Shown piece after piece: positions 21,597 to 51,810 of a stretch of 64,000 nt of DNA. Where the stretch lies: the NCBI RefSeq assembly GCF_003334815.1, contig NZ_QOWO01000001.1; one strand, given 5' to 3'. The notes beneath the pieces were generated by a model that saw nothing but the letters and a program-made list of their open reading frames with translations, made no database searches and was not told the DNA's origin. The DNA is from Escherichia coli. GTDB taxonomy: Bacteria; Pseudomonadota; Gammaproteobacteria; Enterobacterales; Enterobacteriaceae. The stretch's first letter is position 1. Each line of letters opens with the position of its first letter. The position numbers and the translations under genes are program-made.

Positions 21597-23057
<1,461 letters not shown>

Positions 23058-23090
23058 TTAGTTACTGCAGTAGAGGATTTTTTACGGCTG

Positions 23091-23325
23091 CCGGATGCGG
23101 CGTGAACGCCCTATCCAGCCTACGGTTATGTTCCGGTTTGTAGGCCTGATAAGACGCACAGCGTCGCATCAGGCAACGGCTGTCGGATGCGGCGTAAACG
23201 CCTTATCCGACCTACGGTTATGTTCCGTTTGTAGGCCTGATAAGACGCACAGCGTCGCATCAGGCAACGGCTGCCGGATGCGGCGTGAACGCCCTATCCG
23301 ATCTACGGTTATGTTCTGGCTCGTT
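23091..23325. repeat. REP/BIME cluster: three tandem ~90-bp units of palindromic REP sequence
   Basis: unit gccggatgcggcgtgaacgcc...gtaggcctgataagacgcacagcgtcgcatcaggcaacggct recurs at about 23091, 23182 and 23272. Confidence 0.85.
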
Positions 23326-23380
23326 GGCCTTTGGCAACGATTATCCTATGAGATTGGGGCAATTACGCGCCCTCGTCAAA

Positions 23381-26300
23381 TCATTGCGCTTTTTCTTTAC
23401 GCGGTTGGCGCAACACTTCGTTGATTTGCGGATCGTCCAGCGGACCCGAAATGTGATAGCGCAAAATGGAGACTTTGCTCCACAGCGGCCCCAGCACTTT
23501 ACTGGCGGCAAACACTGCCGCGCCAACAATGGGGTTAACCGCAAAAGCCGCAGCCACGCCCACCGTCGCAGAAATCTCTGGTGCGACAACCGCTTCCATA
23601 TTCAGGTCGCGACGTACCAGATTTACCGACCCTTTCATGGCGATATCCGCCTCCAGGCCATCCACCAGCGTGTCGTCGGTGTGCATAACGCCGTCTTTAA
23701 TCCACGCGGTGCTGCGAATGGAGTCAAAATAGAACCCTTCGCCAAAAGTGTCTCTGAAATCAAAACGCAGCTTACGCATCAGGGCATCTACGCTCAATAA
23801 GCGCAGCAATTGCCCGGCATGTCCGGTATTGATTTCGGTAATTTCGCCTTTACCCAGTTGAGTATGAATGATGCCATTCAACGTCGCTTCATCTGGCTGC
23901 CAGGGTGCTTTGCGCCAGTGTAAATCGTAATCCACATTAAATGACGACTGGCGTATGGGCGTCGTGACACCAAAAAATTCTGCGGCGGCATCAATTTTCT
24001 GCCCGCGCAGTTTTCCTTTCAGCGAGGTACGTTCATTCCCCGGATTATTAACCCATTCACCATCGGCAGTAAGCCGCGAGAAACCAGTATCAATCAGTCC
24101 ATTGGTCAGCGTTAACGTATCGCCAGAAATGGTGATATCACTGTCAATGCGACCGAATTTTTGCCCCCAGAACCAGCACTCTGTGCATCGTATTTGGGCG
24201 TCCGGCCAGCCACGGAAGTTAATGCGCTCCGTTGTCGGGAAAGGTGATGACGGCGTTGAATCACCACGAGTTTTCGCCACGCTCGGGTTGTAATAAAGAT
24301 ATTTGATATTCGCCAGCCACGGCGCGTTATTACGCATCGCTAGCGTGGCGTTGATTTCACGCCCTTGCGCTTCAACCAGGGTGCCATTTGCCGTCGGTTG
24401 CGAAACAATACTCAGGTTATTCCATTGCTGATTTCCCAGTGACAACATAGGCGTACGTAACGTTATGTGTTGTGGGAAACTCGCTGCACCACCGACACTC
24501 TCCGCAGCGCCTTTCTGGAACAGGGCCAGCCACTCGGCACCATTCATCGGCGGCATATTGAGTTCAACGCCACTTTGTTCCGGCAACGGCGGGAGCGTTT
24601 TACTGTCTGCCGCCCAAATAGCACGATCGAGCGTCAGCTTTTGACCGAGCAACCAGCGGCTATTGAAATGATTATCCGCACCAGCCTGTCCGGTTAATTC
24701 AAAGCTGTTGAGATTGCCATCAACCTTAACGTTTACCGCTAGTGGTTCACCCGCAGGTTTGGCTAACGGTGAAGGTAAGTGACTGCTCACATTCTTTAGA
24801 TCGCCGTTCAGCTCTATGTTATAGGTCGCACCAGCATGATAAGGCAGATCAATGCCCACTTTACCATCCCACGCCACGCTGCCACTCAATGCTTCGTTCA
24901 CCGCTTCAGGCAGAACGCCGGTTTTCGCCGGTTGCCAGTTACCGTTGAGGTTTACCGCTACCTGGTAGGCTTTTGCCCCTTCTTTGGTGGAAAAATCCAC
25001 GTTCAACGGCTGATTAAACCAGCTTGCTGTCAGTGGTTCACTTTGCAGATCGCTATTGATAAAGCTGAATTTACCGCTCAAATTTTTCAGGGTGCTGTCG
25101 AGTGGTTTGATAAACAGACTGTTATTACGCAGCGTCACTTCACCTTTCGCGGTTACCAGTTCGCCGTTCAGCGGGATATCAAGATGTAAGCGAGCATTCA
25201 CATCGCCGTCGAGCTGGAGTTCTTGCAGGGTCGCACCCAGAGAATCTTTCAGCGGTGTCTCATCAAAGTAAGGGCCAACGGCTTTACCCGGACCTTTAAT
25301 GTCAGCGTCAATCAGCAGTTTTTCTTTTGAGTAGTCAGGGATCACTGCGGTAAGATTACTCGCGCGCACGCCGCCCAGATTAACGCCATCGGTTTTCATC
25401 CATAAACCGTCGTTAATAAAGTCCAGTTCAATATCAAGGTTAGTTAATGCAGGCCAGTCCGGCTGGAAGGCAAACTTCGCGTTGCGCAGCGGCACCAGCA
25501 CTTCAAACTGACCTTCGTTGTGTTTATAGGGGAAGAGTTGCGGATTGCCACCATAAACCAGCGTCGCGTTATCCGCTTCACCGCCCTGAATCGCGCCACT
25601 TAAGTAATCAACCAGGTCTTTACCCATCAAGTTTTCCGGGAAATAGCGCCAGGCTTGTGAACCATCATCGGTACTGATGCCAGCCAGAATACCCAGCCAG
25701 GGTTCATCGTTAGCAGGTTGCAGGTAACGAAAACCGCCGCGCGCATGGACGGCTTTGGCTTTAACGTCAATATTACGCCCATCCAGCTGGAAACCTTTGT
25801 TATTGTTCAGCCAGCTTATAGTTGCCTGGCCGTCGGCGATTTCTAGTGGCGCACGGAATACCGTTTCGTAAGGCATCTTTGCCTGCTTCATCGACGCGGT
25901 AAGCAAACCATTTTCAACGCTGCCGGAAAGCGTCCCGGAGAAGTGTTCCGCACCCGGTAATAATTTCCATTGCTTCCAGGCCAGATCGCTCCACGATGCC
26001 TGAAAACGGGTCTTGTCTGCCGCCTGAAGCGGGATATCCAGCGCCAGAGTGTTAATCTTGCCGCTCGGTTGTGTGGAGCGCCAAACATCACCCAGTGCAG
26101 GTGAAAGTTTCGCGGCCAGCGGGCGTATGCCCTCCAGGCCTGCCAGCTCCAGATTACTGGCGCGAATCCGGAGTTCGTCACTGCGTTTATTGTCTTTGCC
26201 GCCAACGTCCTGTTCCGGTATCCAGGCCAGCGTCAATGCTCCGCTCGGCCAGGGTTTGCCGTCCATCGTGATCCGTGTATCGGGAATAGAGAACTGCCAG

Positions 26301-27181
26301 CCCGGATTTTCACGCGTAATATGCGCGGTCAGATTATCCACCGACAGCGTATGCGTTTGCTTCTCGCCCAACCAGCTGGCACCGCCCTGTTTCAGCCAGA
26401 CGTCACCGCCGGTTACATCGCCTTTGTCGATCGTCATCCAGCCTTCAAGGGAGAACTGTGCCGTTTCCAGCGCAATATTGTCCTGCATCCATTTACCGAG
26501 CCACGGCTTCAGGTCGATGTCATCCGCCTGGAGCCAGACGCGACCATTGCTTAACAACCCCTCATCATCGCGCAAATCCATGCGCACCTGCATCACGCCG
26601 TGCTGTCCGGTAAGGCTGGAGAGGCTTACCAGGCCTTCCGCACGGTGTCGACGTGGATCGTTCAGCCAGGTGAGTTGTGGGATCGCCAGCTCGGCGCGCT
26701 GACCGGATGGCGTCAGGAAACTGACTTCACTGTCGCGAAGATCGAAATGGTCAAATTGACGAAGAAACAGATCGCTGATGTGACTGGCTTCCAGACTGTC
26801 ATCACTACCACCGCTGGTGATAGGAGTGTTGGTGCGAAAGCGCAGCTGCCAGAAAGTGAGGTCGCGAAACTGCCAGCGCATATGTAACAGGCTCTGCCAG
26901 ACATCCAGCGCCAGAGTAACGCGTTTAACCGAAAATTCGCCGCCATCTTTTAGTTCTGCACGGATGTCGTGTGCTTCAAGCGTCGGGCCAAAATTCTGCC
27001 AGCTGGCTGAGAGCTGACTGGCTTCTACCGGCATGCCAGTCGCGGATTCTATTTTGTTGAGGATTTCCGGACGCCAGGCGTCAAGATGCGGTAAAGCAAT
27101 ACGCAGGCCGCTAACCAGCAGGGCAGCGATCACAACGAGCGCGGCTCCAGTAAGCAGTAAAATCCCCGGCAATCGCCTCAC
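23381..27181 (-). CDS. yhdP: AsmA-like large inner-membrane-anchored protein YhdP
   Basis: 1266-aa ORF with N-terminal TM helix. Confidence 0.92.
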   Translation of the reverse strand: MRRLPGILLLTGAALVVIAALLVSGLRIALPHLDAWRPEILNKIESATGMPVEASQLSASWQNFGPTLEAHDIRAELKDGGEFSVKRVTLALDVWQSLLHMRWQFRDLTFWQLRFRTNTPITSGGSDDSLEASHISDLFLRQFDHFDLRDSEVSFLTPSGQRAELAIPQLTWLNDPRRHRAEGLVSLSSLTGQHGVMQVRMDLRDDEGLLSNGRVWLQADDIDLKPWLGKWMQDNIALETAQFSLEGWMTIDKGDVTGGDVWLKQGGASWLGEKQTHTLSVDNLTAHITRENPGWQFSIPDTRITMDGKPWPSGALTLAWIPEQDVGGKDNKRSDELRIRASNLELAGLEGIRPLAAKLSPALGDVWRSTQPSGKINTLALDIPLQAADKTRFQASWSDLAWKQWKLLPGAEHFSGTLSGSVENGLLTASMKQAKMPYETVFRAPLEIADGQATISWLNNNKGFQLDGRNIDVKAKAVHARGGFRYLQPANDEPWLGILAGISTDDGSQAWRYFPENLMGKDLVDYLSGAIQGGEADNATLVYGGNPQLFPYKHNEGQFEVLVPLRNAKFAFQPDWPALTNLDIELDFINDGLWMKTDGVNLGGVRASNLTAVIPDYSKEKLLIDADIKGPGKAVGPYFDETPLKDSLGATLQELQLDGDVNARLHLDIPLNGELVTAKGEVTLRNNSLFIKPLDSTLKNLSGKFSFINSDLQSEPLTASWFNQPLNVDFSTKEGAKAYQVAVNLNGNWQPAKTGVLPEAVNEALSGSVAWDGKVGIDLPYHAGATYNIELNGDLKNVSSHLPSPLAKPAGEPLAVNVKVDGNLNSFELTGQAGADNHFNSRWLLGQKLTLDRAIWAADSKTLPPLPEQSGVELNMPPMNGAEWLALFQKGAAESVGGAASFPQHITLRTPMLSLGNQQWNNLSIVSQPTANGTLVEAQGREINATLAMRNNAPWLANIKYLYYNPSVAKTRGDSTPSSPFPTTERINFRGWPDAQIRCTECWFWGQKFGRIDSDITISGDTLTLTNGLIDTGFSRLTADGEWVNNPGNERTSLKGKLRGQKIDAAAEFFGVTTPIRQSSFNVDYDLHWRKAPWQPDEATLNGIIHTQLGKGEITEINTGHAGQLLRLLSVDALMRKLRFDFRDTFGEGFYFDSIRSTAWIKDGVMHTDDTLVDGLEADIAMKGSVNLVRRDLNMEAVVAPEISATVGVAAAFAVNPIVGAAVFAASKVLGPLWSKVSILRYHISGPLDDPQINEVLRQPRKEKAQ

Positions 27182-42481: not shown

Positions 42482-42506
42482 AGTCAAGCTGTAACGGCAT
42501 GAAATT

Positions 42507-42537
42507 AAAGGGGCTATTTCAGCCCCTTTACTTTTTG
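42507..42537. terminator. bidirectional rho-independent terminator supplied by the element (ends fis read-through and the cargo operon)
   Basis: aaaggggctatttcagcccctttactttttg. Confidence 0.7.
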
Positions 42538-42558
42538 TTGCAACCGTACTGACAACCC

Positions 42559-50407: not shown

Positions 50408-51643
50408 TTAATTATCTGATTTTAAAAGGTTTATTTTTTCTAAATATTTTATCCATTTGTCCAAGGCTAACCGTTTTTCCGGGATGTACTGGCTACGGTT
50501 GTACACCGCCATCACTCCTGGCATTGAGTGGCCCAGCAACTGTTCAACCACATGCGGGGCTATCCCCAAGTTATTTAGACTGGTGGCAAAAGTGCGGCGC
50601 AGGTCATGCAACGTCCACGGCGTTGAATGCTCTAATCGTCTGTATAAGATACGCCCCCACTGGCTGACAGCTTCGGGTTTCTTCATTTCACCAAGCAGCA
50701 TTCCGCTATCAAGATGATTTTGGCGTAGCTGTAAAATAAATGGCTGTATAGATTCAGGCACGGGTCTGATGATTTTCTCCCCACCCTTGCTATGTTCTCG
50801 CGGAACTGTCCAAATCCATTCTTTCACGTTCCATTCCGACCATGTCGAAAGACGAATTTCTTGTGTTCTTGCACCAAACACTATTAGCAATTTTAAAAGC
50901 GCGGTGTAGTAAGGTAGAAACGCATATTCGCTTTTTAGCGCATTCCAAAGGCCACTAAGTTCTTCAGAAGTTAAAACACGATCACGTTTTGCCTGCTTTC
51001 TTCCAACATCAGTAACTTTGATATCCTCCAGCGCATCACTGTAAACATCGTGCAGCCTGCGGTTGTGAATCAACGCCTGCTTGCAGTTACCTAATATGTA
51101 GCCGCTTGCTACCGGCGCGACTTTTTTGATTCTGCTAAATGTCTCCATCCATCTTGCTTTAGAGCACTGTTCAAGTGGCAATTCGCCGATGAAAGGATAA
51201 ATATGTCTTTCGAATTGGCGTCTATGCCTTTCAAAGTTGACCCGGTTTTCCGCCGCGTACTCATTAATCCAGCGTTCCAATGCTTCCCTGATAGTGACAG
51301 GTTTCATGGTTTTTGCTGACTCTTGGTCAAACTGGTCTTTAGGATCTAGATTATGAGCAAGCCACCGTTTGCATTGGTCGCGTTTCACCCTCGCCTCAGC
51401 AAGAGATAAGGCAGGATACTTGCCCAGCACTAGCGTCAAAGTATTGGCGCTTTTATGCTTATTCTTATAACGGAACAACCATTGGATGTTATTGGCCGGT
51501 CTCTTCTCGCCATCAAGGATTTTGCGCCTTGATGGTGTAACGCGAACAGAAAGGCTGCCACCGTCAGCAACATCAAAAGGTTTTTCGATGACTTTGCGGG
51601 TTAACGCACGCAATTGAACATCTGAGAGTTTATTTTCGGCCAT
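50408..51643 (-). CDS. tyrosine recombinase/integrase, P4-type (N-terminal DUF4102-like arm-binding domain)
   Basis: ORF 50408..51715 begins with TTG; ATG at 51643 gives ~411 aa; N-terminal KLSD...DGGSL...LGKYPALSLAEARVKRD; C-terminal catalytic signature LHDLRRTFAT...LLGHS...AVYNRSQY. Confidence 0.88.
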   Translation of the reverse strand: MAENKLSDVQLRALTRKVIEKPFDVADGGSLSVRVTPSRRKILDGEKRPANNIQWLFRYKNKHKSANTLTLVLGKYPALSLAEARVKRDQCKRWLAHNLDPKDQFDQESAKTMKPVTIREALERWINEYAAENRVNFERHRRQFERHIYPFIGELPLEQCSKARWMETFSRIKKVAPVASGYILGNCKQALIHNRRLHDVYSDALEDIKVTDVGRKQAKRDRVLTSEELSGLWNALKSEYAFLPYYTALLKLLIVFGARTQEIRLSTWSEWNVKEWIWTVPREHSKGGEKIIRPVPESIQPFILQLRQNHLDSGMLLGEMKKPEAVSQWGRILYRRLEHSTPWTLHDLRRTFATSLNNLGIAPHVVEQLLGHSMPGVMAVYNRSQYIPEKRLALDKWIKYLEKINLLKSDN

Positions 51644-51810
51644 AGAGTTAATGACAACCTTTTTGACAACTGTATGCAGGGAGTAACTGATAACTGATGA
51701 TACAATGCGAGCCAATAAAAAATAAATATCTCTTTCCGCATCAATTATTTATGATGAATACAAATTATCTAGAGTGATAATAAATTACGTATAATGACTC
51801 TGTATTTTAC

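Follow-up and report, generated by a model that had tools for sequence, protein, structure and literature searches.

In the 64,000-nucleotide stretch of Escherichia coli DNA analysed here (the window), which is 99.9% identical to MG1655, the genes yhdP and tldD both lie on the minus strand and are separated by a spacer of 338 bp (23043-23380). A tandem array of REPs lies wholly inside this spacer. Tandem Repeats Finder reported it as the only array in the region, at 23084-23330, with a period of 91 bp, 2.7 copies, 90% matches and a score of 417. A gap-free repeat finder confirmed the unit spacing at 91-92 bp and found 14-nt inverted repeats within each unit. Reading of the sequence together with REP consensus matching gave five palindromes of alternating orientation in the order Y-Z2-Y-Z2-Y, which amounts to two full Y+Z2 units and a third Y. 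The features of the locus are as follows.

21597-23042, minus strand: tldD, the downstream gene (TldD, NCBIfam NF008006, 1063 bits, full length)
23084-23330, no strand assigned: the whole BIME-2 array (Tandem Repeats Finder and direct-repeat family)
23090-23123, minus strand (GTAG on the minus strand): Y REP no. 1 (consensus; RNA hairpin of -17.8 kcal/mol)
23124-23139, no strand assigned: 16-nt linker Y1/Z2a, between the GTAG/CTAC ends, GGTTATGTTCCGGTTT (sequence)
23140-23174, plus strand (GTAG on the plus strand): Z2 REP a (inverted repeat and consensus; hairpin of -20.2 kcal/mol)
23175-23181, no strand assigned: short linker Z2a/Y2, 7 nt, AACGGCT (sequence)
23182-23215, minus strand: Y REP no. 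2 (consensus; compensated foot pair GTCGG...CCGAC)
23216-23230, no strand assigned: 15-nt linker Y2/Z2b (sequence)
23231-23265, plus strand: Z2 REP b (inverted repeat and consensus)
23266-23272, no strand assigned: short linker Z2b/Y3, 7 nt, AACGGCT (sequence)
23273-23306, minus strand: Y REP no. 3 (consensus; hairpin of -14.9 kcal/mol)
23307-23350, no strand assigned: apparent decayed half-unit remnant (alignment and repeat finder, as the fourth copy of the direct-repeat family)
23381-27181, minus strand: yhdP, the upstream gene (YhdP, NCBIfam NF008148, 2170 bits, full length)

Both protein models are NCBIfam equivalog or exception models. A first-pass annotation had described a conspicuous tandem array of REPs, in three ~90-bp units at 23091-23325, between tldD and yhdP. 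The reported array and its five palindromes bear this out, the coordinates were essentially right, and full-length TldD and YhdP stand on either side. The period also holds, at ~91 bp, but the number of units does not, since 2.7 units correspond to five REPs.

Along the transcript from yhdP to tldD, Y REP no. 3 is the first hairpin and starts 74 nt past the yhdP stop codon, and Y REP no. 1 is the final one, 47 nt ahead of the tldD ATG. The linkers between successive REPs are 16, 7, 15 and 7 nt long, and the 15-16-nt linkers read GGTTATGTTCCG(G)TTT. The 34-nt Y consensus, allowing up to 3 mismatches, matches 3 times in the 64-kb window against 0.00 expected from 100 shuffles, and the cluster at tldD-yhdP is the only such Y REP cluster within the window.

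Next to the array, the segment 23307-23350 aligns with a linker, a Z2 lacking 22 internal nt, a short linker and the start of a Y, with a score of 27.8 (the maximum of 500 shuffles was 18.2). It looks like a further half-unit that has decayed. Alleles with a single REP have the same segment, as does E. albertii, and this suggests an original insertion larger than one REP.

A separate hairpin lies just past the yhdP stop, at 23351-23380 (GGGGCAATTAC.CGCCC), and has no T-run. It is conserved in Escherichia, Citrobacter and Salmonella (loci L077, L095 and L044), whether or not REPs are there.

Membership of the BIME-2 class

The array is a BIME-2, with alternating Y and Z2 REPs, a short linker, tandem units and no IHF site. 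Ton-Hoang et al. (2012, PMC3333891) define BIME-2 by Z2 and Y REPs, a short linker and tandem copies, and BIME-1 by Z1 and Y in a single copy, with a long linker that bears an IHF site. The assignment was made because Y is paired here with Z2 across the short linker AACGGCT, in units that are repeated in tandem and lack the IHF consensus. REP palindromes are 30-40 nt long with an internal stem mismatch; the five elements here are 34-35 nt long, and their folds carry a 2x2 mismatch in Y and a 1x1 mismatch in Z2. GTAG (CTAC on the other strand) stands at the foot of all five. Consensus matching gave Y and Z2 in alternating inverted orientation, joined by the 7-nt AACGGCT linker in 2.7 units of 91 bp, and the IHF consensus WATCAANNNNTTR was absent from both strands, also in a relaxed form. 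The spacer is extragenic, with no annotated CDS in five RefSeq records, and a query containing the array matched E. coli genomes at a median of 7-8 places.

Three other identities were considered and rejected. BIME-1 or RIP was ruled out by the lack of Z1, of the long L linker and of the IHF consensus. A CRISPR array was ruled out since the intervening segments (Z2 REPs and linkers) repeat too, so that the whole 91-bp unit is the repeat. The open reading frames at 23095-23424 (plus strand, 109 aa) and 23126-23260 (minus strand) are by-products of the palindromes, and none of the five RefSeq records has a CDS there.

Compared with the BIME-2 elements of E. coli, the array differs in nothing of kind: it shares the alternating Y/Z2 order, the short linker, the tandem and extragenic arrangement, the unit number that varies by strain, and the published gyrase cleavage. 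With BIME-1, RIP and RIB it has in common that a Y REP is joined by another REP in inverted orientation, but those have Z1, a single copy and a long L linker with an IHF site, whereas in the array the partner is Z2, the linkers measure 7 and 15-16 nt, and the IHF consensus is missing. Another comparison is with REPINs and the RAYT transposase that goes with them. Like a REPIN, the array is made of inverted REP doublets able to fold into one long hairpin, which is the minimum-energy fold of the Y3-Z2b unit. Unlike REPINs, these doublets are amplified in tandem and not dispersed, and no RAYT gene was found within the window.

The feature is already known. The first-pass annotation had called it a known REP/BIME class and not novel, and this can be sharpened to BIME-2: the family has been described since the 1980s-90s, the locus itself is named in a published gyrase map (PMC6379681), and variation between strains in the number of tandem BIMEs has also been published (PMC3333891). 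What the present analysis adds is the allele census, the cross-species picture and the exact relation of the window copy to MG1655. The locus is probably the REP245a-g of MG1655 in EcoCyc, because MG1655 has seven REPs here and the distance from rrnD P1 matches: its tldD-yhdP spacer is ~37 kb from rrnD P1, and Gaal et al. (2016) placed 'rep245' 35 kb downstream of it. If the name is right, the locus is one of eight REP regions whose exonuclease-protected coverage rose under stress.

Alleles in E. coli and its relatives

The copy number of the array was followed across 5426 complete E. coli genomes, the comparison across strains that had been proposed with the first description of the array. 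Three queries were used, and their coverage statistics separated the alleles. A flank-only query sized the alleles directly in 59 evenly sampled genomes and agreed with the census counts.

One Y: spacer 155 bp, 3569 of 5426 genomes, 65.8%
Two Y: spacer 247 bp, 11 of 5426 genomes, 0.2%
Three Y (the window allele): spacer 338 bp, 96 of 5426 genomes, 1.8%
At least four Y, or disrupted: sampled members 429 bp, 1750 of 5426 genomes, 32.3%

All sampled members of the last class have four Y and a 429-bp spacer, among them MG1655, BW25113, M19 and IAL7250. No allele of five or more Y was seen among the sampled genomes that could be sized; the coverage statistics do not distinguish such alleles from four Y.

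The window array is the MG1655 array without its third 91-bp unit, a clean deletion, plus one SNP. MG1655 has four Y and three Z2, and the window copy has three Y, two Z2 and a private change. This change, from C to T at 23302, lies in the third Y REP; it gives rise to a GATC (Dam) site and costs one pair at the foot of the hairpin. None of the 5426 complete E. coli genomes has T at this position, and the best match to the array among them has one mismatch.

Derivatives of K-12 also differ from one another. MG1655 and BW25113 have four Y; EMG2, WG1, MC1061, GM4792 and 'MG1655-pvir' have three; and OV2 has two. Either units have been lost on laboratory time scales, or the repeat has been collapsed in some of the assemblies.

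IS1397 inserts specifically into REP loops. In strain BH100 (NZ_CP024650.2; locus L007, 2462-4051) it sits in the loop of the single Y, with GCGGCGTGA on one side of the IS and GTGAACGCC on the other, and its transposase is annotated as frameshifted. Certain IS elements are described as associated with REPs (PMC1525189). The alleles of one, two, three and four Y and the IS1397 insertion in this one genome support the earlier suggestion that the array is a possible hotspot for rearrangement.

The GTDB representative of E. coli (SCPM-O-B-8794, locus L024) carries a distinct three-Y array in a spacer of 339 bp. Its units share substitutions of their own, namely a compensatory GGTG...CACC and the linker AATGGCT, which points to concerted evolution or to an independent expansion. 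From such comparisons, the units of one array evolve together within E. coli.

Outside E. coli, a degenerate pattern for a conserved TldD peptide located 107 loci in species-representative genomes, and the yhdP-tldD spacer was extracted from 86 of them. Most Enterobacteriaceae other than Escherichia have a spacer of 64-90 bp and no REP; in Citrobacter sp. Awk 4, for example, it is 75 bp. E. albertii, E. whittamii and two more Escherichia species carry a single Y whose position matches that in E. coli, in spacers of 148-155 bp that keep the flanking linker pieces of E. coli. A Z2-like and Y-like pair is found at a slightly different point in members of the Citrobacter freundii complex, and a further pair, at a third point, in C. 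werkmanii and Salmonella enterica subsp. arizonae. Since the REP pairs and their points of insertion differ by lineage, several lineages have acquired REPs in this spacer independently.

In Photorhabdus, Xenorhabdus, Providencia, Hafnia, Serratia and a Vibrio, the interval between yhdP and tldD is ~850-864 bp (loci L011, L018, L025, L043, L098, L114 and ~25 others), which leaves room for an extra gene that Escherichia lacks.

Two further observations were made elsewhere in the window. Directly downstream of fis, at 42482-51810, there is an insertion of 9.3 kb that MG1655 lacks, whose junction shows an overlap of 17 bp. Its open reading frames include one that is tyrosine-integrase-like (50408-51715, minus strand) and one for a phage tail tape-measure protein (42559-44832, minus strand), and it looks like a prophage remnant or an integrative island. 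K-12 lacks it, so that the window is not K-12 despite its identity to MG1655; a query with the part up to 44000 matched IAL7250 and almost every genome of the collection. The second observation lies within yhdP but on the other strand, at 25080-25494 (plus strand), where the Rfam family Rev11, an antisense RNA known from soft-rot Enterobacteriaceae, was matched below threshold (57.1 bits, gathering score 91.3, E = 6.6e-15).

RNA hairpins, transcription and gyrase cleavage

As RNA, each REP folds at -14.9 to -20.2 kcal/mol, and the RNA of the whole spacer folds at -137.6 kcal/mol (z = -6.7). Over ten distinct Y copies from the tldD-yhdP locus, drawn from several alleles and species, 97.3% of the stem cells are paired. 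Compensatory changes from CG to UA occur at two stem pairs among these ten copies, a small sample in which some copies are related. Several Y variants contain G-U pairs that form on the minus strand only, which is the mRNA sense. On that strand, two units match the Rfam covariance model for naRNA4.

23143-23212, minus strand: Y2+Z2a unit, match to naRNA4 RF02564 (77.3 bits against a gathering score of 59.5)
23234-23303, minus strand: Y3+Z2b unit, match to naRNA4 RF02564 (65.1 bits against a gathering score of 59.5)

The RF02564 model is the Y+Z2 unit of REP325, the array in the yjdM-yjdN spacer. REP325 resembles the window array in being a tandem Y/Z2 array between co-oriented genes and in matching the same Rfam model, and differs in having 12 REPs and a linker ~6 nt longer (seen as an alignment gap).

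The two matches, both above the gathering score and on the transcribed strand, could be read to mean that the units are genes for naRNA4-like nucleoid-associated RNAs, which would bind HU, bridge cruciform DNA and condense the chromosome; naRNA4 from REP325 has been reported to condense DNA together with HU (Qian et al. 2015, PMC4550694). The Rfam model is, however, a generic Y+Z2 unit. A match to it confirms that the array belongs to BIME-2 and is not evidence for a small-RNA gene or a function. The nucleoid model is also contradicted by the Harris et al. 2026 preprint, in which deletion or overexpression of REP325 had no effect on nucleoid size and Hi-C found no contacts between REPs. We consider it very improbable that these units are naRNA4-like genes.

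The array is probably transcribed together with yhdP, because the spacer has neither promoter nor terminator and the spacer of the REP-free relatives is very short. A scan of 23043-23380 found no sigma-70-like promoter, including between the array and the tldD ATG, and no intrinsic terminator in the form of a GC-rich hairpin followed by a T-run; the sole terminator match lies inside tldD. Our search of the literature on the operon structure of yhdP-tldD found nothing useful.

These results also bear on whether the array is a transcription terminator that splits yhdP and tldD into independent units. Its stem-loops are stable and GC-rich, as a terminator would need, and some REPs are partial Rho-dependent terminators (Harris et al. 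2026 preprint). None of its hairpins has a T-run, however, and the scan of the spacer turned up nothing terminator-like. Were termination complete, tldD would go unexpressed, with no sigma-70-like tldD promoter between the array and the ATG, and the 64-90-bp spacer of the REP-free relatives has no obvious terminator either. That the array separates the two genes in this way seems quite unlikely.

REP325 has been published as a partial Rho-dependent terminator and as a stabiliser of the upstream mRNA (Harris et al. 2026 preprint). In the same preprint, tandem gene pairs with a REP between them show upstream-biased expression genome-wide, and the effects of REPs depend on context and vary widely. 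By analogy with REP325, the stable hairpins, transcribed with yhdP, would block 3'-to-5' exonucleases and so protect the yhdP mRNA. They would also partly attenuate read-through into tldD, biasing expression towards yhdP. Stabilisation of the upstream mRNA and attenuated read-through are thus the likely transcript effects at yhdP-tldD, as far as the analogy goes. REP-dependent control of translation has been reported within a distance of 15 nt, and the first hairpin here, at 74 nt past the yhdP stop, is beyond it.

Sutormin et al. (2019, PMC6379681) named the 'BIME-2 ... between tldD and yhdP' as having multiple gyrase cleavage sites, and their data make it a strong in vivo site of DNA gyrase cleavage that is independent of transcription and lies mainly in the Y REPs. 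Table DS3 of that study gives the 307-bp tldD-yhdP element 35, 13, 3 and 10 sites for Cfx, RifCfx, Micro and Oxo respectively, counts that are possibly inflated by reads within near-identical units. The 35 Cfx sites are part of a total of 104 over all 263 BIME-2 intervals. In the portion of the table outside ~1.08-2.89 Mb, the next-highest Cfx rows are aceA-aceK with 8, sucB-sucC with 6 and rhaA-rhaD with 4, and the table gives 0 ciprofloxacin sites, against the 35 at tldD-yhdP, for the 582-bp interval assigned by position to REP325. Cleavage is far more frequent in Y REPs than in Z2, and the gyrase signal goes up when transcription is blocked (PMC6379681). The data are for the four-Y allele of a W3110 derivative, and the window allele has one Y fewer.

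The strong gyrase site of phage Mu is a natural comparison, since it too is cleaved strongly without dependence on transcription (PMC6379681). Its sequence is unrelated, however, and at tldD-yhdP the activity sits in repeated palindromes. Unlike the Mu site, the tldD-yhdP site is also absent from most strains. One might suppose that the array is a dedicated strong gyrase site of the chromosome, with a strength that would scale with the number of Y REPs, and that the alleles of one to four Y would tune, from lineage to lineage, local supercoiling or the ratio of yhdP to tldD expression. We think this unlikely. If it were true, the natural allelic series would serve as a ready-made titration in tests of BIME-2 function.

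Origin and significance

Following established knowledge of REPs (PMC3333891), the palindromes of the array would derive from non-autonomous elements that depend on a RAYT (TnpA-REP), and gains and losses of 91-bp units would come from slippage, or from unequal recombination between near-identical repeats. Any host function that the array has is dispensable, because two thirds of E. coli genomes have one Y and no Z2 and the other genera have none.

This leaves the question of whether the array has any function for the host or is a selfish or neutral repeat, made of REPs that landed in a tolerant spacer and drift in number by slippage, with gyrase cleavage and hairpins as by-products. A good deal is consistent with this. 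A single Y without Z2 is what 65.8% of genomes have, and the spacer is empty, at 64-90 bp, in most Enterobacteriaceae. The REP pairs and their positions differ by lineage, as independent insertions would give, and a decayed REP remnant adjoins the array. Laboratory derivatives of K-12 carry four, three or two Y with no known consequence. On the other side, the pairing of the hairpins has been kept by compensatory changes, an observation that recognition of the DNA hairpin by a RAYT would explain equally well, and a third of all BIME-2 gyrase sites are at this locus, far above what its length predicts (PMC6379681). We regard a selfish or neutral array as a serious possibility, while leaning slightly against it. 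It is compatible with the molecular effects set out above, and denies only that they are under selection.

Altogether, we hold with high confidence that the tldD-yhdP array is a BIME-2 and a published gyrase cleavage site, which would have originated from RAYT-dependent elements, would change in unit number by slippage and may act on the yhdP-tldD transcript.

Beyond correct annotation, the importance of the array is small. It is best masked as a repeat and not called as a gene or small RNA, the more so as the 109-aa open reading frame at 23095-23424 (plus strand) crosses it. Since its copy number differs among laboratory derivatives of K-12, it can lead assemblies astray, or be used to mark strains. 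The natural series of one, two, three and four copies, at the BIME-2 most strongly cleaved by gyrase, is a simple test system for the effects of such elements on supercoiling and operon expression.
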